From a virus (lineage: Duplodnaviria > Caudoviricetes): a DNA stretch of 28,746 nucleotides. Both the position numbers and the translations under genes were made by a program. The stretch lies in the IMG/VR virus record IMGVR_UViG_3300020045_002143, positions 1-28,746 of that record; one strand, given 5' to 3'. The number at the start of each line of letters is the position of its first letter. Positions within the stretch are counted from its first letter, which is position 1. The notes beneath the pieces were generated by a model. It made no database searches, was not told the origin of the DNA, and saw only the letters and a list, made by a program, of their open reading frames with translations. Shown piece after piece: positions 3,598 to 25,599 of this stretch.

Positions 3598-3876
3598 ATG
3601 CCAGATATTCAAATTCCAGGCGGTGTGATGCATGTCAGCGGAGATTTCAAGCCGGGTGATCAGGCGCCCACCGGCTATCTTGACTGGCATGAATGGGCAG
3701 AAGTGCAGCACAAGGCTGGATTGAGGCAAAAGGCCTGCGGCCGATGTGGAAAGTGGTTCTATCCGCAGCAGCTCAGCAACCGGGTAGACGTTTACACAGC
3801 ACGGACCAAGAAATGGGAACCTGTGACGGTGGAGTCTCCCGTTTGCAATGTGTGCAATAAAGCCAAAGAGGAATAA
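3598..3876 (+). CDS. Hypothetical protein with two CxxC pairs (zinc-ribbon-like)
   Basis: ACGRCGKW...VCNVC; fits between the excisionase-like gene and the integrase. Confidence 0.65.
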   Translation: MPDIQIPGGVMHVSGDFKPGDQAPTGYLDWHEWAEVQHKAGLRQKACGRCGKWFYPQQLSNRVDVYTARTKKWEPVTVESPVCNVCNKAKEE

Positions 3877-3877
3877 C

Positions 3878-4984
3878 ATGGCAACGATGGGTCGCAAGCG
3901 CAAATCCTCAGATACGGGGCTAGAGCCTCGTGTGTACGCCAAGCATGGCGCGTATTACTACGTCCACCGCGAAGGTAAGTGGGAGCGCTTGGGTACCGAC
4001 ATGGCCGAGGCCAATCAGAAGGCACGCCTTTTCAATGATCCAGATGGCGAATACGGCACCCTGGTCTATTGGCTCAAAATGTGGCTGGTGCACTGCCAGG
4101 CCAAGGTCGCGGCAGGCAAACTGGCCCAGCGTACCCTGGACGATTACACCGGCGCCGTCAAAGGCACCGACAAAAAGAACGGCGCCTTGAGCATCTTCTT
4201 TTCCCCGCCACTTACCCCGCTCGACCTCGATCCCGACATGGTGCAGGACTTTCTGGACACTATGGCCGAGCTGGGCCGCCCGGTTCCTGCCAACCGCGAG
4301 AAGGCTGCACTCAGCAGCTGCATCAGTTGGCTAATCCGGACAGGCAAGGTGCCAGGACTGAAGGTCAACCCTTGCCTGCGGGCCAGTGGCATCAAGCGCA
4401 ACCCCGAGGCCAAGCGCGACCGCTACGTCACCCACGAGGAATACCGAGCAGTCTGGGCCGTGGCGCAGACCAGCGTGAAGCTGATGATGGAGCTGACCTA
4501 TCGCACCCTGCAGCGCCCCGAGTCCGACATCATCACCTGGACCACCGGCGTGCTGCTGACCGAAGACGGCCAGCGCAAACTGCACTTCAGACAGGGCAAG
4601 ACCGGAAAGTGGATGAAGGTGCTACTGACCGCCGAGCTCGACGCGCTGATTCGCCAGGGTCTGGGCATTATCACCAAGCTGCACCAGCCCATCGTGCGCA
4701 CGCGAGTGGGCGAGGCCTACAGCTACGACGGCCTGAGCGCCATGCTCAAACGCAGCATTGGCAAAGTGAACGCCCAGCGCAAGAAGCTGGGGCTTCTGCC
4801 GATCCCAAGCTTTGGCTTCCGCGACCTGAAGGGCAAGGGCGCCACAGACATGTGGCTCGCCGGCATTCCTATCGAGCAAATTCAGCAGCTGTGTGGCCAC
4901 GAAGACAAGACTACAACCGAGATCTATGTCAAGCAGCGATGGCGGGAAACAGCCACCGCCAACCTGGTGGTGATGGGCGCATAA
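3878..4984 (+). CDS. int: Phage integrase (tyrosine recombinase)
   Basis: GAGGA RBS before ATG 3878; N-terminal arm-binding region (GRKRK...PRVYAKHGAYYYV); catalytic LQRPESD, QGKTG, FRDLKGK, CGH, EIY; adjacent to attP. Confidence 0.93.
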   Translation: MATMGRKRKSSDTGLEPRVYAKHGAYYYVHREGKWERLGTDMAEANQKARLFNDPDGEYGTLVYWLKMWLVHCQAKVAAGKLAQRTLDDYTGAVKGTDKKNGALSIFFSPPLTPLDLDPDMVQDFLDTMAELGRPVPANREKAALSSCISWLIRTGKVPGLKVNPCLRASGIKRNPEAKRDRYVTHEEYRAVWAVAQTSVKLMMELTYRTLQRPESDIITWTTGVLLTEDGQRKLHFRQGKTGKWMKVLLTAELDALIRQGLGIITKLHQPIVRTRVGEAYSYDGLSAMLKRSIGKVNAQRKKLGLLPIPSFGFRDLKGKGATDMWLAGIPIEQIQQLCGHEDKTTTEIYVKQRWRETATANLVVMGA

Positions 4985-17796: not shown

Positions 17797-18267
17797 TCAG
17801 GCGTTGAGGTTGATCTCGACCGTGGTCACACCGTTGCCCGCGGCCTTGGCGGCGTACCCTGCCAGCACGTTGGAGCCCACGGTGGTGGTCAGGCGGCTGT
17901 TGGCGTTGTCCCAGTACAGCAGGGCGCCTTGGGCGACCACGTCGGTGCTGAGTTTGGCGATGGTGAACACACCCTCAACCGCCACAGCGCCGGTGGCGCC
18001 ACTGGCAATGGCGGTCATGGCCACACCAACGCGGGCGCCGATCAGCAGCACCTGGCCGCTGGAGACGGCTGAGCCTGCAACGTAGTCGATCACGTCGCCA
18101 GACATCACGTATTTGGTGGTCATGCCTGCGGCACCGGCCATCGAGATGGCTGTGGCCATATCTGGCGACAGCAAGGTCGAGGCGTCAATGCCTGCTGCAT
18201 GGGCTGCCAGCCCAAGGCAAGCAATGGCCGCCACGGCCAAGAGGGGGAGAAAACGGAAGTGTTTCAT
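17797..18267 (-). CDS. DUF2190 capsid decoration/cement protein with a 48-aa hydrophobic N-terminal extension
   Basis: Core from MTTKYVMSGDVIDY (18123) with VSSGQV, GVA, EGVFTIAK, GALLYWD; AAGGA RBS precedes the upstream ATG 18267. Confidence 0.8.
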   Translation of the reverse strand: MKHFRFLPLLAVAAIACLGLAAHAAGIDASTLLSPDMATAISMAGAAGMTTKYVMSGDVIDYVAGSAVSSGQVLLIGARVGVAMTAIASGATGAVAVEGVFTIAKLSTDVVAQGALLYWDNANSRLTTTVGSNVLAGYAAKAAGNGVTTVEINLNA

Positions 18268-18307: not shown

Positions 18308-20389
18308 TTAAGAGCCGGTGGAGCGCACAGCGCCGCGGAAGTCGACACCGCCAATGGCGTAGTCCATGCGCACCTTCCAGCGCGCACCGTCCACGCTGAA
18401 GCCGTTTTCCATCTCCAGGTAGGGGGTGTCGATGCCGTCAAGGAAGGCCACTTCCAGCACCGGGGCTTGGGCCGGGTCGGCAAACATGAACCATGGCGTG
18501 CCGCTCAGGCGCGGGGTGCCGACGATGCTGCTCACCATGGCGGCGGCAATGTTGGCGCGCTGGAGTTTGTTGGCGGCGTCCGGGTCATAGGTGCTGTTGT
18601 TCACCACCTTGGCCTGGCCGGCGATGGCGTCCGGGCCCAGCCACACGGCGGGGCTCAGGGCCAGGAAGTCGTTACCGCTCACGTCCTTCTGCGCGCTGAG
18701 AACCACACGGGCGGCCTCGAACGCGGTCACGGTGGGGGCGCCGGTGGAGACGTTGGCGTGGCTGGCATGGAACAGCGTTACACCGTCAGACAGCGTGGGG
18801 CCCATGCCGCTGTTGAGCGCCAGGGTGGCATACACATCGGCCTCAACTGTGCGTTTGGCGGAGCGGCCCAGGCTGGAGGCCAGGCCGGTGAGCGCGCCCA
18901 TGTCGTCGTTGATGATGGCCTCGCGGCTGATGTTGATGATGTTGCCCTTGGTGCCTGCGGTGAGGGTTGCCTTTTCGCCATCGGGGATGGTTTTGTTGCG
19001 GAATTCGCCCAGCTCGGTTTTGCTCTCCAGGTTGCTCAGTGAGCCGACGCGGTAGCGGTTGTGGGCGCGGAAGTCGCTGACGGTGCCACGGGCGCAAAAA
19101 ATCGTCCAGGTATCAGCCTGCAGGGCGTAGGCACCTTGCAGGGTTTTGTGCATGACGTTTTCCAGCAGCACAGGGAAATCGCTGGTGCTCTGGGTGAAGG
19201 CGGCGGCGACGATGGCGCGCTGGTCCATGCCGTCGGAGCGGATACCGGCGCGGGCCAGGCACATCTCGGCCAGGTTGAGTAGCTTGCGGCCGCGATAGGG
19301 GTTGGAGCCGTCGGCGCGCACGGGGCCGGACTTGTCAACGGTGATGTTGGCCTTGGCCAGCACGGCCTGGATCATGGCGTCGCGGTGTTTGTCGCCTTCG
19401 TCTTTGACCGTGTTGACCGTGATGTGGCCGGCCACCGGGGTGGCACCGGCGCCCAGGTGGGCCAGCAGTTTCAGGCCAGCGGCGTCGACCGTGCAGGCGG
19501 CGTCTGCCTGGCAGGCGGCGCGCAAGGCGGCCACGCCATCGCGCTCGGCAAATTTGGCAAAGCTGGCGTGGATGGCTTCGCGGCGAGTGTTGTCGGCGGC
19601 CAGCGCGGCTTGCACAGCAGCAGACACGTCGGCAGGGGCAGCGGCATCAGGGGGTGTGCCAGCCGCCGTGGGGGTGACTTGTTGGGTCATGGTGGGAGCT
19701 TTCAAGGTTGGCGTGGCGGCTGCCACGGAGGGGCGGGAAAATCGTGCAGACGCCTGCACGCGCAGGGCGGCAGAGGCGGCTACGGGCAAAGCGGTGGTGA
19801 CCGCGTCGACAAAGCCCATGGCCAGGGCCTCTTGGGCGGTGTAGTAGTGGTCGGTGCCATCGGTCAACAGGGCCAGCATGTCGGCAACCGGCTGGCCGGT
19901 TTTGGCGGCGTAGCTGGTGGACAGGGCGGCGCTGTACTGGTCCAGCATGTCAGCCGTGTCGCGCAGTTTGGCGCTGTTGCCCTCGGCATAGGTCCATGGG
20001 GCATGCACCATAAAAATGGCGTTCTCGGCCATCTCGACCTTGTCACCGGCCATGGCGATCAGGCTGGCGATGCTCATGGCCACACCGTCCACCACGGTGG
20101 TGACGGTGGCCGCGTGGCGCTTGATGGCGTTGTAGATGGCCACACCATCGGGCACGCTGCCGCCGTAGGAGTTGATGCGGATGGTGATGGCCTGCGCGGT
20201 GAGGGCGGCCAGGTCTTTGACGAACTGGGCGGCGCTGACTGTCTCGGCCCACCAGCTCTCGCCGATGTCGCCGTAAATGAAGATTTCAGCCTCGGCCACC
20301 GGGGTGCCGCCAGCGGCTGCAGCGGCTGCGGCCAGGGGGGACTTTTGGCGGATGCTGTACCAAGTTTGGGGTGTGGCGGCTTGTGTCAT
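18308..20389 (-). CDS. ClpP-type prohead protease fused to major capsid protein
   Basis: IFIYGDIG, INSYGGSV, GVAMSIAS (Ser), MVHAPW (His), TAQEAL..GFVD; then Ala-rich scaffold and capsid (STSDFP.LL, SREAIINDD, RMDYAIG..DFRG). Confidence 0.92.
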   Translation of the reverse strand: MTQAATPQTWYSIRQKSPLAAAAAAAGGTPVAEAEIFIYGDIGESWWAETVSAAQFVKDLAALTAQAITIRINSYGGSVPDGVAIYNAIKRHAATVTTVVDGVAMSIASLIAMAGDKVEMAENAIFMVHAPWTYAEGNSAKLRDTADMLDQYSAALSTSYAAKTGQPVADMLALLTDGTDHYYTAQEALAMGFVDAVTTALPVAASAALRVQASARFSRPSVAAATPTLKAPTMTQQVTPTAAGTPPDAAAPADVSAAVQAALAADNTRREAIHASFAKFAERDGVAALRAACQADAACTVDAAGLKLLAHLGAGATPVAGHITVNTVKDEGDKHRDAMIQAVLAKANITVDKSGPVRADGSNPYRGRKLLNLAEMCLARAGIRSDGMDQRAIVAAAFTQSTSDFPVLLENVMHKTLQGAYALQADTWTIFCARGTVSDFRAHNRYRVGSLSNLESKTELGEFRNKTIPDGEKATLTAGTKGNIINISREAIINDDMGALTGLASSLGRSAKRTVEADVYATLALNSGMGPTLSDGVTLFHASHANVSTGAPTVTAFEAARVVLSAQKDVSGNDFLALSPAVWLGPDAIAGQAKVVNNSTYDPDAANKLQRANIAAAMVSSIVGTPRLSGTPWFMFADPAQAPVLEVAFLDGIDTPYLEMENGFSVDGARWKVRMDYAIGGVDFRGAVRSTGS

Positions 20390-20395
20390 GGCCGC

Positions 20396-20441
20396 AATGT
20401 AGGCGGCGGGCTGTCTAGTCTTTAAGCAAAAAAGCTGGACT
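20396..20441 (-). promoter_or_regulatory. Late promoter box 1 (putative Mor/C-type activator site plus -10)
   Basis: 31-bp box 20411-20441 identical to 25528-25558; TACATT 9 nt downstream on the - strand, ATG 6 nt further. Confidence 0.75.
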
Positions 20442-20464
20442 ATTTTTAGTTTGGCAGCTGGGCG

Positions 20465-21385
20465 TCAAACAAGCGTCAAAGTCTTCCATTGGCCATCACT
20501 TAGGCCTCTGTCATCGTGGTACATATCGGTCATAGCCTGGTGCTTGTGGCCTAAAAGCACCATGGTATTGATGCCTTGCGCGCGGTACAGGCGCTCTGAA
20601 AGCGAGCGGCATTCGTGCAGCGATGTCGGGGCACCGGATTTTGGCGGTGCAATGGATGCTTCGCGGGCTTCTTCAAATCGCGCAGATAGACTGGCATCGC
20701 CGGGGCGCTTGCCGGTCGACTTGCGCAGCAGGTATTCATCGCCCACCGCGTAATCCCGGCAGGACTCGATCACGTCGCCAAGGGTGAGCCCGAGGGCGTC
20801 GAGGCGCAGGGCCAGAGGGAGCGCCAACTTCGCCCCGGTCTTTGCTTGCTCAATGTGAAGGTGGTCATCCCACACGTCAGCAAATCGCATCTTGACGAGA
20901 TCAGAGCGGCGCTGGCCGGTGACCAGGGCCAGCACCATCATGCGGCTGACCCAGCCGGGCATGTGTGCGGCGGCATGGCCGTGAATGGCCGTCCACTGCT
21001 CCAGGGTCAGGCGATTGCGCGCCACTGTGACACGCTGCGCCCGCACCTGGTCGGCCGGGTTGCGGTCCACCCAGCCATAGGTCAGCGCACCGCTGAAGAT
21101 TGACTTGGCCTCGATCAGCACGCGCTTGGCCAGAGGCGGGTGCTCTTTGTGCACTCGACCAATGAAGGCTGACACGTCGTGCGGCCGGATGCTTGAGATG
21201 ATCCTGTCGCGCCCCAGGCCCCGAAGCACATGGGCCATCGAACACCTCCGGTTGGCCTTGGTCTTGTCGGTGATCGGCAGGCCAGCGATGATCTGGTCGT
21301 AGACGCCTGACCATTGCCCCAGCGTGCGGTAGCGGGGCCTTACGGCGCCCACTGTCCGCGAGATGAGGAACGAGGTCAGGGACAT
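20465..21385 (-). CDS. Second tyrosine recombinase, lambda-Int-like, lacking the N-terminal arm-binding domain
   Basis: VTGQRRSD (R), QAKTG (K), LHECRSLSERLY (HxxR), LLGHK (H), MYHDDRG (Y); only 306 aa. Confidence 0.9.
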   Translation of the reverse strand: MSLTSFLISRTVGAVRPRYRTLGQWSGVYDQIIAGLPITDKTKANRRCSMAHVLRGLGRDRIISSIRPHDVSAFIGRVHKEHPPLAKRVLIEAKSIFSGALTYGWVDRNPADQVRAQRVTVARNRLTLEQWTAIHGHAAAHMPGWVSRMMVLALVTGQRRSDLVKMRFADVWDDHLHIEQAKTGAKLALPLALRLDALGLTLGDVIESCRDYAVGDEYLLRKSTGKRPGDASLSARFEEAREASIAPPKSGAPTSLHECRSLSERLYRAQGINTMVLLGHKHQAMTDMYHDDRGLSDGQWKTLTLV

Positions 21386-21396
21386 GAAACGGGCGT

Positions 21397-21422
21397 GTGA
21401 TGAAAGTATTAGATTTACCCGA
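21397..21422. repeat. Putative recombination site A
   Basis: gtgatgaaagtattagatttacccga; 20/26 identical to site B; contains the stop codon of 21415-21672. Confidence 0.65.
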
Positions 21423-21672
21423 GAGCCTTACCACCAAAGCGCATGGACACCCAGTCGCCAGCAGCCTGCCCAATAACGACTGCGGCGACTACAAACCAGT
21501 CGCCATCCATCACGCCGACGACACCGCCAGACAGCACCAGAAGGCGCACAAGGTTGGCCGCAGCGTTGAGTAAGATCGTTGCCCATTGCTTGTCTGCCGC
21601 AATGGCTTGCACTGCTGATGTGCGTAGGACAGCGTGGGCAAACTGCCCCAGGAAGATCAGAAAAATAGTCAT
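21415..21672 (-). CDS. 85-aa three-TM membrane protein (DUF5698-like pattern), putative cassette 2
   Basis: Three hydrophobic segments; no evident SD; bounded by sites B and A. Confidence 0.65.
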   Translation of the reverse strand: MTIFLIFLGQFAHAVLRTSAVQAIAADKQWATILLNAAANLVRLLVLSGGVVGVMDGDWFVVAAVVIGQAAGDWVSMRFGGKALG

Positions 21673-21673
21673 G

Positions 21674-21699
21674 GTGCTGAGATCGTTAGATTTACACGA
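21674..21699. repeat. Putative recombination site B
   Basis: gtgctgagatcgttagatttacacga; contains the stop codon of 21692-23617. Confidence 0.65.
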
Positions 21700-23617
21700 A
21701 CTTGTCGGCGGTCAGTGTTGCCGCGCCCAGTCTGTAGCCAACAGAGTTCCCGTGCGTTCCGTCAATGGTTGCGTAGTATGCGGACCCGTTGACCGCCCAC
21801 TTACTGGTTTCCGTTGGGTAACTATCCTCCACCGCAGCGGACGGGTCGAAGTACCCAGTAATATCCAACAGGGGATGCAGCGACCGAATGGCATCGTTGA
21901 CATAGTGGCGGCGGGACGTTGGACCGCCGTAACCACCACCCGACGAAGGCGTCTGATTTACCGCAGTAGCCCAGTTATCAGTTGAAGCAGCATCGGGGGT
22001 TGCTGTCATCGCAATCATGTTGACGTTCGGCAGTATGGCGCGAATCTGTTGATTCACGTTTGCCATCTGCACCAACACCTGCGCTGCGCCGCGAACGGTT
22101 GAATCAACAATTGGCTGCAAGTAGGCCCAAACGCAGGTTCCATCAACTATGCCGCCGCTCGTACTTGCTGGTCCGGTTCCAGATGCCGCAGAAGTTCCCG
22201 CGACTACGCATACATAAATGTTTGAATTTGCCTGTTTTGTATCCCACTTTGCGTAAGCCGTTGAAATGGCCCAGCTTCCATAGGAAATACCGGCCTGCAT
22301 GTCGTTATGCACATTGGCATTGATGACGTGTGTCGGGTTGGCAAGCTGGAGCAGCGCCCGGCGATAAGCCCAATTTGACGGGGTGATCAGGTACTTATTG
22401 CCATCAGACCCGCGCCCAAGGCCGCCGCCGCTGTAGCCAAGGTTCTCCCATATGCCGCGCTCGATGAAGCCGCGGTTACCCAGCGCGGAGCCAACGCCAT
22501 CGCCCTCGGAGCCCGAACCGCTGCCGCCTTCTCCTACACCGTAGCTCAATGAGTCACCGACAAACCAGATGAACGGGTCTCCTGAGTCGGTTTCGATCAG
22601 CAGCATGATCGGCGTGAAGTAGTTGCTGTTGCCGCCCTGAGTTGCCGGGGCTGCAGTGATGGAAGTGGCAGACTTTGCTGTATCAAGAGCAATTTGAGAC
22701 TGCGCTACAGTGGTGCCGTTCAACGATGCGTAGCCCACGTAGCGCTGCAAGAAGTTGCTGGACGAGCGGGTGTAGGGAATGCGACCCGTAATTGGTGTTC
22801 CCGCTGTCGCTTCTTCGACCGTAGTCCACAGCCCAAAGAACTGCTCCGCTTCAACATAGCTTCCGAGGTCGAGTACATCGCTAATCAGGTAGCCGTTCGC
22901 AGGCGGCGATGCTTGCCGATACTGGGCGACCTCGCTCGATCCAAACTTGAACATCTTTCGAGGCGACAGGCCCGTTGTGGCGTTCTGGTAAACCTGTTCA
23001 AAACCCACTTGGAAGTTGTAGTCGTTGGTGAAATTGGTGTCCACGATTGGAGTCCCAGCGAGTGGCTGGAAGCATTGCAGGACAGCCCGAACACGCCGAA
23101 ACCGGGTGTTTGAATAGTGCCGGGTACGGTGCAGCATGGAGTAAGCCGAGCCGCCTCCAAACCCTTGCACGTCCACGGACATGCCTTGGTTGATGCCGCG
23201 CCACGTAAGCGCAACGGCATCGACGTTTCGGCCAGCTACCTGGGTTGCAATCCTCCCGGTGACAAGGTTAGTTCCTGCATCAACCATGCCCGGCTGCGGG
23301 CTGAGTAAAAGGCTACCGGTGGAGCTGGGGTTTGCGGCCACCTCAGACGCCAATCCAGCCAGGCGGCCGATGCCAAAAACAGTCGTGAATTTTTTGGTGG
23401 TGTTGTTCCAATACACTTTGTCACCCACAGCCCATGCCTCCGCGCTGGTCTTGGCAACATAAAACTCGCCTTGGGTGATGATGTCGGTTTGCGCGCCAGC
23501 CTTGCAATCAGCCGTGGCCAGACCAAACAGGCTGCCCACGAGGACGCCCGCTCCTTGCAGCAGGTCATACGGCGCGAGAACATGGATGATGTTGCCTTCT
23601 TGCTTGTAATTTCTCAT
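21692..23617 (-). CDS. DUF2190 decoration domain fused to an SGNH/GDSL hydrolase with an inserted CBM-like module
   Basis: aa 1-~106 DUF2190 (MRNYKQEGNII...GEFYVAK..AEAWAVGDKVYWN); SGNH blocks FVGDSLSYG, GRGSDG, VHND, DGTH; insert WAISTAY...YVCVVAGTS...DGTCVW. Confidence 0.8.
   Translation of the reverse strand: MRNYKQEGNIIHVLAPYDLLQGAGVLVGSLFGLATADCKAGAQTDIITQGEFYVAKTSAEAWAVGDKVYWNNTTKKFTTVFGIGRLAGLASEVAANPSSTGSLLLSPQPGMVDAGTNLVTGRIATQVAGRNVDAVALTWRGINQGMSVDVQGFGGGSAYSMLHRTRHYSNTRFRRVRAVLQCFQPLAGTPIVDTNFTNDYNFQVGFEQVYQNATTGLSPRKMFKFGSSEVAQYRQASPPANGYLISDVLDLGSYVEAEQFFGLWTTVEEATAGTPITGRIPYTRSSSNFLQRYVGYASLNGTTVAQSQIALDTAKSATSITAAPATQGGNSNYFTPIMLLIETDSGDPFIWFVGDSLSYGVGEGGSGSGSEGDGVGSALGNRGFIERGIWENLGYSGGGLGRGSDGNKYLITPSNWAYRRALLQLANPTHVINANVHNDMQAGISYGSWAISTAYAKWDTKQANSNIYVCVVAGTSAASGTGPASTSGGIVDGTCVWAYLQPIVDSTVRGAAQVLVQMANVNQQIRAILPNVNMIAMTATPDAASTDNWATAVNQTPSSGGGYGGPTSRRHYVNDAIRSLHPLLDITGYFDPSAAVEDSYPTETSKWAVNGSAYYATIDGTHGNSVGYRLGAATLTADKFV
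23256..23282. repeat. Putative recombination site C, inside the DUF2190-fusion gene at the domain junction
   Basis: ccggtgacaaggttagttcctgcatca shares GnTGAnAnnnTTAGnT with sites A and B; falls at about codons 112-121. Confidence 0.5.
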
Positions 23618-23626
23618 TTCATGCTT

Positions 23627-25240
23627 TCATTTGACAGGGGTGAATTGGCTGGCCAGGGCGGCATCGTCGCCTTGCGTCGGGGTCTTTGGGCCTGCTGCTG
23701 CAGTCTGGGCGGCCACAGCGTTGGCGGCGGTGTTGTCGTTAGCGGCGTCGCTGCTCAAAATCAGCTCGGCGCGGGCGGCTTCTTTGCGCCACTGGATGAT
23801 TTGCTCCAGCACGTCGCGCGGGTTGCGCCCGCCTTTGCGGATGGCTTCGACCTCGCTCATGAAACCGGCTTTGGTGAGCACCACCAGGGCCTGGGCCTCT
23901 TTCATGGGGTCGATCCAAGGCATGGCCTGGGCGACAAACAGCGCATCGTTTTCGGTGCCTGGCATCACGTCGGGCGGGGTTTTGACCACGCCGGAGAGGT
24001 GGGCGGCTTGCACAAAGCCGTCCCACACGGGCTTGACCCACATGCCGGTGAAGGCGTCGGTCAAGGTGGCATAGTTGATCCACTGCTCGACCAGTTCCTG
24101 GCGCTGGGCGGAATAAGTGCCGTTGTAGTCGCGGGCAATACTGCTGTAGCTGGCCCCTACACCGGCGGCGGTGGCGCGTAATTGGCCCTGGCGGAAGGTG
24201 ACGACGTTGGGGTTTGGGCGGTTGCTGTCAATCAGGCCAATCTCTTCACCCACCTGCAGTCCGTCGATGATCATGCCGGGGGTCAGGCGCAGGTCGCGGC
24301 CCAGGGGGTTGCCGTCAGAGTCGCGTTGGCTGACGGGAACGCTGGCGGGGTCGTAGCCGTCGGGGCTGTTTTTCTTGACGTAGGCGGTAAGCGCGGCGGC
24401 CACTTTGGCGGCGATGCGCTCACTGTCTTCATAGTCTTTGATGTCCTCAAGCCGGGCGATGATGCTGGCAAATTCGGTGATGCCGCGCATCTGGCCAATG
24501 CGGTCGCGCAGGGCCACGTGGATGACGCGGTCGGCACTGATGCGCTTGAGGTCTTGGGTGCTCAGGCTGATGGCGCTGGCCCCGTCAAGCGGGTTGCCGC
24601 GGTAGACGTGGTATGCAATGGGGCGGCCCCAGGCGTTGCGCTCGATGCCCTGGCGGATGCGCTCGCCCTGATCGAAGCCCATGGGGCAGAGGTCGGCCTC
24701 AAACAGCTCCAGGCTATAGGGCACGCGGCTGGCGTGGGTGAGGCCGGGGGTGAGGCCGATCAGCTCTTGGGCAAAGGATTCCCCGTCCCGGATCCAGGTG
24801 CTGACGGTGAGGCGCTGCATGGCGGCGTCGGTGTGCAGGCCGGTGACTTCGGGGGCGGCGCGCCATTCGCGGTGGGCATGGCGCAGGGCGGCGGCGTACT
24901 CTTCGTGGATGCTGCCATCTTTGCGGCGGGGCTGGGGCTCGATGCCGATGCCGCTGGGGCCAACAATGTTGTTGGTCATGGTGCGGATGATGCCGCGGCC
25001 AATATCGTTGTTGCGCTGGATGTGGCGCGCCTGGGCCATGAGGGCGCCCGCGCCTTGCTGGACGATCTGGTTTGGCCCCAAGCGGTCGCGGTAGAACTTG
25101 CGGCTGTTGCTGGGGCTGGCGGCCTCATGCGCGGCGTAGGCGCGGATTTTGTCGTAGGCGTTGCGGGCGCCCAGGCGGCGCAGGCCTGCGGCGGGGGAGA
25201 TGTAGCCGACCAGGCGGTCGACGATGTTGAGGTCGCGCAT
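23627..25240 (-). CDS. Portal protein, lambda family
   Basis: IVGPSGI, RDGESF, RQGIERNAWGRPIAYH, GQMRG, YSAQRQEL, PWIDPMKE. Confidence 0.93.
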   Translation of the reverse strand: MRDLNIVDRLVGYISPAAGLRRLGARNAYDKIRAYAAHEAASPSNSRKFYRDRLGPNQIVQQGAGALMAQARHIQRNNDIGRGIIRTMTNNIVGPSGIGIEPQPRRKDGSIHEEYAAALRHAHREWRAAPEVTGLHTDAAMQRLTVSTWIRDGESFAQELIGLTPGLTHASRVPYSLELFEADLCPMGFDQGERIRQGIERNAWGRPIAYHVYRGNPLDGASAISLSTQDLKRISADRVIHVALRDRIGQMRGITEFASIIARLEDIKDYEDSERIAAKVAAALTAYVKKNSPDGYDPASVPVSQRDSDGNPLGRDLRLTPGMIIDGLQVGEEIGLIDSNRPNPNVVTFRQGQLRATAAGVGASYSSIARDYNGTYSAQRQELVEQWINYATLTDAFTGMWVKPVWDGFVQAAHLSGVVKTPPDVMPGTENDALFVAQAMPWIDPMKEAQALVVLTKAGFMSEVEAIRKGGRNPRDVLEQIIQWRKEAARAELILSSDAANDNTAANAVAAQTAAAGPKTPTQGDDAALASQFTPVK

Positions 25241-25512: not shown

Positions 25513-25558
25513 ACCATACCGCCCACCCTGTCTAGTCTTTAAGCAAAAAAGCTGGACT
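25513..25558 (-). promoter_or_regulatory. Late promoter box 2 (putative Mor/C-type activator site plus -10)
   Basis: Same 31-bp box at 25528-25558; TATGGT 9 nt downstream on the - strand, ATG 10 nt further. Confidence 0.75.
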
Positions 25559-25599
25559 TTTATTGTGGCGTTTCCTGCCTTGCGACTATGGTGGTCGGG

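Follow-up and report, generated by a model that had tools for sequence, protein, structure and literature searches.

Recombinase-mediated cassette exchange (RMCE) with HK022 Int, Cre or Flp uses two incompatible sites that flank a cassette, and two crossovers swap the cassette (PMC7736782). The sites of the lambda/HK022-type enzyme have a 7-bp overlap between inverted Int-binding arms. For HK022 Int, which is homologous to the enzyme described here, the 7-bp overlaps must match, and two incompatible pairs give engineered cassette exchange (PMC7736782). RMCE is a laboratory method in that paper. In this study, we analysed 28,746 nt of a Caudoviricetes virus (IMG/VR record IMGVR_UViG_3300020045_002143; the whole stretch is called the window), with a focus on a 306-aa tyrosine recombinase and three nearby sites, C, B and A. 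Both site types, C and A-type (sites A and B), consist of 9-bp arms around a 7-bp spacer (9-7-9, 25 bp). The enzyme-coding end of a structural gene lies between two direct sites that have like inverted arms but differ in their 7-bp spacers. Two heterospecific sites around an exchangeable cassette were found, as in RMCE. Unlike the laboratory method, the layout is natural, the enzyme has no arm-binding domain and one site lies within a reading frame.

Judged from the sequences, we believe that the locus is probably a natural form of RMCE, in which the adjacent armless lambda-type recombinase would swap the enzyme end of the structural gene between phage genomes, with one crossover per site. The anatomy and pairing of the sites, the precise replacement of the interior, the in-frame fusion to a constant anchor and the carriers without a recombinase were observed directly. 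The cassette-exchange system is real, widespread and apparently undescribed; no description was found in openly licensed papers and preprints, a coverage that mostly excludes subscription journals. Neither the enzyme family nor the logic of the reaction is new, whereas a natural system that uses them to exchange domains between phages would be, with a catalytic step that we infer from sequence. Exact in-frame swaps of receptor-binding or depolymerase domains between unrelated phages are an open question and are usually credited to chance homology. If our reading is true, the locus is a counterpart in nature to engineered cassette exchange, which until now has mainly been a laboratory procedure.

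The R64 shufflon (Rci, sfx) and tail-fibre shufflons also have an adjacent armless recombinase, a constant N-terminus with a variable C-terminus, a 7-bp spacer and, at some sites, one degenerate arm (PMC11852207, PMC8138268). In these papers, shufflons invert a stored set of segments between common-core sites. The window shares the armless adjacent recombinase and the constant N-terminus with a variable C-terminus. However, it holds one payload between direct sites with unlike spacers, and variety is found only across genomes. Instead of inverted common-core sites, the three window sites lie on one strand, the strong matches across loci are direct, and the spacers differ.

The modules of Acinetobacter bounded by pdif sites are modelled as units exchanged between replicons. 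These XerC/D (pdif) modules resemble the present cassettes in their tyrosine-recombinase-site borders, in the formation and resolution of co-integrates between replicons, and in carriers that need not encode the enzyme (PMC5790767). They differ in using the host XerC/D pair, in residing on plasmids and in moving whole genes, whereas the window has a single phage enzyme, its own sites and an in-frame domain fusion. The 9-7-9 layout and the dedicated phage enzyme argue against an XerC/D assignment, given the layout of dif. Integrons, including phage-borne attC arrays, likewise have gene cassettes beside a tyrosine recombinase and recombinase-less carriers (PMC9892861), and GTTRRRY-like strings occur at B and C on the plus strand of the window. 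An integron reading of these strings was ruled out: an NCBIfam scan of the recombinase gave no family match, so no IntI, and no attC hairpins were found on any of the six strands folded (z-scores 0.03 to 1.81). In addition, the cassettes are replaced and not accumulated, and the genes are read toward a co-oriented recombinase.

E. coli phage tailspike genes carry two motifs, one where the anchor meets the enzyme and the other behind the stop, which are proposed to aid domain swapping across genera (PMC10408124). Unlike the sites described here, these motifs are 20-95 nt long with 63-81% identity and are proposed to serve homologous recombination; the word 'recombinase' is absent from the main text (PMC10408124).

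Sites C and A and the replaced interior

The recombinase gene (20465-21385, minus strand; Pfam PF00589 and PF22022) lies in a head operon on the minus strand, in the order terminase, portal, 641-aa open reading frame (ORF), 85-aa ORF, recombinase and protease-capsid fusion. The 641-aa fusion ORF (21692-23617, minus strand) begins with a constant anchor of 118 codons (23264-23617, minus strand) with a head-decoration (cement) domain (PF09956 at residues 6-102; phrog_122). The exchangeable payload is its C-terminal part of about 520 aa (21692-23255, minus strand). Site C (23247-23271, minus strand) has its left arm at 23271-23263, the spacer TCACCGG at 23262-23256 and its right arm at 23255-23247. 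It lies in frame within the head-decoration gene and codes N-L-V-T-G-R-I, and B and A lie at gene ends. Site B (21665-21689, minus strand; spacer TCAGCAC at 21680-21674) is an A-type site that overlaps the stop of the fusion gene. Site A (21388-21412, minus strand) has its left arm at 21412-21404, the spacer TCATCAC at 21403-21397 and a degenerate right arm entering the recombinase start. A small hydrophobic ORF of 85 aa (21415-21672, minus strand) forms a secondary module between the two A-type sites.

Across loci, the C motif consists of the spacer TCACCGG between arms that resemble CYAATCCYG on the left and GGGGATTRR on the right. The A-type spacer is TCWKCAC; directly upstream of the recombinase, it is preceded by the conserved sequence CTAATCCCC. 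A matrix for site A trained without the window matched the window only twice, at A and at B (score 23.0 for B), and a matrix for site C trained in the same way gave site C a score of 27.6. The original prediction was right in that C, B and A are real, conserved sites of recombination type next to a tyrosine recombinase. The spacer TCACCGG was present in 51 of 52 5' sites and an A-type spacer in all 49 3' sites, and this order was fixed.

The symmetry scan showed a peak at the spacer centre for 24 A sites without a recombinase and for 22 C sites, that is, inverted core arms around a 7-bp overlap as in lambda att, although this feature is weak in the window itself. No peak was seen for 22 A sites beside the recombinase, in which the right arm overlaps the start of the gene. 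Among A sites without a recombinase, 29 were examined for the right arm, and this arm, which was absent from the search pattern, emerged on its own (G+10 in 25, A+11 in 21, T+12 in 20). The glycine wobble base of site C, which was unscored, was G in 17/17 training sites against 17% GGG usage. The C matrix was trained on sites chosen partly by motif, so conservation of the V and T wobble bases is not independent evidence; the G wobble and the right arm are.

In about 50 diverse phages, a C site is paired with an A-type site at a distance of 0.8-3.3 kb. Many of these phages have no recombinase, including the cultured Curvibacter phage P26059A. C was located 1.2-3.3 kb upstream of A in 22 of the 23 other recombinase loci with enough upstream DNA; three recombinase loci were too short to judge. 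A scan with the C motif found 21 viral loci, with A downstream in 16 of 18 informative ones. A scan with the A motif found 18 viral loci, with C upstream in 14 of 16 informative ones. The chance of a partner site is about 0.023 in these comparisons. Of the four misses, two have an A site shifted by one base at the stop of the payload, and two have no C. On 221 control loci (5.7 Mb, both strands), the C matrix gave four matches, all of them duplicate records of clade loci. The duplicate loci L251, L273, L274, L280, L286 and L287, and L002 (no C), were dropped before these counts, and six C loci without an A match were left out of the symmetry and register scoring. In L271 and L272, the A-type sites are placed at gene ends with no upstream C. 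In L002 (1050-1100), a payload without its 5' end abuts an inverted portal region, which may be a rearrangement or an assembly chimera.

A recombinase was found nearby in only 1 of 39 motif-found loci. Whole records found by pattern or by cassette encoded none (0/36 and 0/4), and the positive control was detected. These records include eight viral records at least 90% complete and phage P26059A. In P26059A (KY981271.1, 78123-82620; L289), two tandem anchor-C-payload-A units (gp119 and gp121) are separated by an HNH gene, and no recombinase of this family is present. The main text of the P26059A paper makes no mention of recombinase, integrase, cell surface, structural protein, mass spectrometry or lysogen.

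The interiors between C and A are replaced precisely. Nine pairs picked for a shared flank were tested, and the interiors were unrelated in all nine; seven phage pairs, from five backbones, share both flanks and have no interior similarity by blastn or tblastx. L293 and L295 share an identical sequence up to the first base after the C spacer; about 1.4 kb of unrelated sequence follows, and identity resumes at the A arm. Among 46 interiors compared, only one pair gave a DNA alignment. The small module is mobile as well. The 85-aa ORF recurs in the unrelated phage L293 with 100% protein identity and 89% DNA identity over window positions 21397-21672, and the homology ends with the final base of the A spacer. 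The head genes of L293 are different and it encodes no recombinase; identical TCATCAC spacers flank its 85-aa ORF. This ORF had no Pfam or PHROG match. Other small genes between two A-type sites were seen in L019 (9307-9994, 177 aa, phrog_24928) and L172 (5232-5623, 119 aa).

The short motifs might instead be hotspots for homologous or microhomology recombination by the host or phage, with the recombinase as a bystander or relic. All 40 pattern- or cassette-found records tested lack the recombinase, site C also codes a conserved peptide, and the E. coli tailspikes are a precedent (PMC10408124). Nevertheless, the sites are just 25 bp long, have 9-7-9 inverted symmetry and fixed silent positions, and stand directly upstream of one recombinase clade (28/30 rows). 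Their spacers differ by recombinase clade, whereas the arms are constant. We consider the hotspot explanation unlikely.

The joined 26-mer and possible excision of the cassette

The original prediction joined the minus strand at 23282-23268 to 21408-21398 at a shared CTAA, and read the resulting 26-mer as a palindromic ancestral acceptor split by two successive cassette insertions. The letters of the 26-mer are correct, and its 9-bp ends pair at 7/9 positions around 8 bp. At this fixed register, a 7/9 match has a chance of 0.0015 (binomial) or 0.0025 (200,000 random joins), and the chance rises to 0.026 with a spacer of 6-8 bp in any register holding CTAA. The match is thus uncommon for a single try, yet it was picked after the fact. 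Conservation of the arm symmetry in homologous loci was the test named for this claim, and the claim fails it: 7/9 pairing at the same register occurred in 0 of 45 loci with both sites, which indicates that the symmetry is particular to the window. At that register, the 21 loci with a recombinase had a mean pairing of 2.38 and the 24 loci without one a mean of 2.29, where the null gives 2.43; in two rows, L172 and L266, the A position was off by one. In joined C/A hybrids, CTAA showed no symmetry peak; the sole peak coincided with the midpoint of the 7-bp spacer.

CTAA, wrongly taken as the crossover point, is the outer end of a binding arm, and the true site centre lies about 11 nt further on. 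The left half (23268-23282, minus strand) comprises anchor codons and the outer 4 nt of the left arm of site C, and is not a conserved arm. The right half (21398-21408, minus strand) comprises the inner 5 nt of the left arm of site A and 6 nt of spacer. It had been called the outer half of A; the homology of L293 reaches the last base of the A spacer, so this half belongs to the 85-aa module and moves with it. The T at position -1 that is shared with the 85-aa module was found in only 2 of 60 listed A-type sites, the window's own and one off-register row. In L096, a 12-nt match to part of the left half stands just before site A with a different spacing, and was treated as chance.

Of the proposed cassette insertions, one part stands: the 1859 bp do hold two mobile modules. 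There is no sign of an empty acceptor split by them, as 22 of the 23 other recombinase loci with enough upstream DNA are filled and C adjoins A in none. The TGATG/CATCA ends that appear on removal of the 1859 bp, which had been offered as independent support for a cassette, are best read as chance. The joined 26-mer is a chance symmetry in the wrong register, and despite the 7/9 arms in the window (p ~0.0025 at the fixed register), an acceptor centred on CTAA is hardly credible.

The same model can be restated in the corrected register. The cassette would be excised as a circle despite its unlike spacers and reinserted into an empty site, with the inner arms as a terminal inverted repeat. Coupling sequences of Tn916-like elements are a precedent for excision with unlike spacers. 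The inner arms pair best of all (means 5.8/9 and 7.1/9), the C and A spacers are alike in their first two bases, and the 85-aa ORF does lie between two A-type sites. Against this, no empty locus was found among the 24 recombinase loci with enough upstream DNA. The C and A spacers differ in all loci, and neither the common attL/attR overlap nor the empty attB of a lambda att system was found. In viral contigs, the exact pattern of a C-type left arm with an A spacer gave no matches, and the converse swapped-spacer pattern gave two, both of them ordinary filled C sites. The absence of empty and spacer-swapped sites is weak evidence because the two exact patterns are narrow; no search was aimed at the exact joined 26-mer. 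In addition, the spacers never change places, whereas coupling-sequence systems would mix them. Excision and reinsertion is, in our view, rather unlikely, although it keeps a little more weight than the hotspot explanation.

Recombinase and proposed exchange between genomes

Core-binding and catalytic domains and the R-K-H-R-H-Y residues place the enzyme among the tyrosine recombinases of the lambda-Int lineage. Residues 21-295 align with lambda Int 75-348 (E 1e-42), and lambda Int was the sole relative found in the PDB. Just 20 residues precede the part that matches lambda Int from residue 75 onward, so the arm-binding domain is missing; the open frame continues for 14 codons upstream of the start. 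R159, H257, R260 and H280 are invariant among 68 homologues, and K182 and Y289 are present in at least 90%. Their catalytic roles were assigned through the lambda alignment and the residue numbering that we assume. In a quick tree of 95 of 194 rows, the enzymes with sites group together in a clade of 30 rows (support 96), and 28 of the 30 have a scored A site. A protein search of cultured phages returned 139 records, all below 60% identity; among the 40 matches listed, these are lambda-type integrases. In a Rhodoferax family sample of 401 genomes, only the centre genome of the sample matched at E 1e-90.

Sister recombinases keep the inner arms and use other unlike spacer pairs. Sister armless recombinases adjoin payload genes bounded by the same inner arms in L186, L023, L032, L188 and L189, and the spacer pair CGGGTGG/CTCGCGC occurs in L186 and L023. 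Several sister loci have the recombinase pointing toward the payload, with a conserved gene of about 82 aa behind the recombinase.

Site A and the start of the recombinase gene overlap, and a clear ribosome-binding site ahead of the ATG is lacking. The arms might thus be mainly operators, for autoregulation of the recombinase or for control of late genes, with the swaps incidental. We regard this as highly improbable, since the sites persist, with better arms, in phages without the recombinase gene, and coincide with the exact replacement breakpoints.

Under natural RMCE, the recombinase would be expressed late from the head operon while two phage genomes share a cell, through co-infection or an induced prophage. 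It would bind the arms; recombination of C with C would fuse the genomes and recombination of A with A would resolve them, or the order might be reversed. Recombination of C with A on one genome would be blocked, so that the domain is not deleted, because the C and A spacers share only the first two bases and one more. Phages without the recombinase would be served by the enzyme in trans. Small additional genes, the 85-aa ORF among them, may be gained or lost through recombination between two A-type sites. The new domain would be displayed on the virion, here on the head-decoration protein, and would act on the host surface polysaccharide.

Several observations weigh against this scheme. A sites without C occur in L002, L271 and L272. 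The right arms beside the recombinase gene are degenerate (mean 3.05/9 vs a null of 2.3), and in the window itself the palindromes are poor (C 4/9, A 2/9). Positions 3-4 of the A-type spacer are variable (28/11/5/4/1 of 49), also when the phages compared share both flanks, so strict 7-bp identity does not hold. Lambda recombination, in the strand-swapping model, tolerates central spacer mismatches. Two unrelated backbones were never found to carry a near-identical large payload; the closest case had 67% DNA identity (L288, 5' site unclear). The junction motif is absent from about 19 of 26 payload homologues, which indicates that payloads also move by other routes. Most anchors belong to no family, so homology shows virion display only for cement-type anchors.

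On a larger scale, we lean slightly towards a community-wide natural RMCE network. Freshwater Betaproteobacteria siphophages, Mu-like phages, P2-like phages and podophages would share a socket of two heterospecific sites. Surface-polysaccharide enzyme domains would be plugged onto virion anchors by an armless lambda-Int clade that works in trans, on lytic phages as well, and sister recombinases with other spacer pairs would form separate exchange pools. The question of domain exchange becomes directly testable, since the enzyme is named, the 25-bp sites are defined and a carrier (P26059A) is in culture. The compact enzyme of 306 aa and the several natural spacer pairs are possible tools, and the C-site motif is a handle for mining hundreds of polysaccharide-active domains.

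Payloads, anchors and neighbouring genes

In 29 of 46 loci, the reading frame that enters at C stops 8-16 nt short of the first A spacer, and the other 17 hold at least two ORFs. The swapped interiors are mostly carbohydrate esterases or hydrolases in in-frame fusions. Of 41 payloads searched against Pfam, 22 matched at E 0.001 or better, some below the curated cut-off, and 19 had no match. The matches were GDSL/SGNH (16), polysaccharide deacetylase (3), and fucosidase, rhamnosidase and sialate acetylesterase (1 each). The window payload is predicted to have a beta-sandwich and an SGNH-type carbohydrate esterase fold. Its AlphaFold2 model (pLDDT 83.9) best matched a PVA esterase (9kr0, E 5e-14) and an acetyl-xylan esterase (7toh, E 5e-13) in the PDB, and the payload also matched the PHROG 8480 esterase.

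Five of 26 payload homologues, compared as proteins, are joined to different N-termini through the same junction peptide, and two of these N-termini are anchors known from C loci. The anchor of L176 is 51% identical to that of the window, and its payload is unrelated. Cassettes in L003 (231-338), L092, L262 and L267 start with a tail of 31-36 aa that closes the anchor, followed by a separate enzyme ORF. L092 and L262 have unrelated anchors, and their tails are 73% identical. In L096 (1547-2293), an HNH-like ORF lies on the opposite strand within the C-to-A interval. The C-to-A interval of L100, from 3273 to 128 nt upstream of the recombinase, holds an ORF that we presume, by eye, to resemble a diversity-generating reverse transcriptase.

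In the late head operon, the portal gene (23627-25237, minus strand; PF05136) lies upstream of the fusion ORF, and the ClpP protease-major capsid fusion (18308-20389, minus strand; PF00574, PF25209) lies downstream of the recombinase. A second, free-standing cement gene is located at 17797-18267. Separate from the head region, a 378-aa integrase (3848-4984, plus strand; PF00589, phrog_1) likely serves lysogeny, so prophage integration probably does not require the recombinase of the head region. A scan of the window for promoters and terminators gave nothing above chance level. A 37-nt direct repeat, 95% identical between its copies at 20411-20447 and 25528-25564, brackets the cassette region. 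The copies lie just upstream of the protease-capsid gene and of the head-tail/portal genes, and the repeat is possibly a late promoter or operator.

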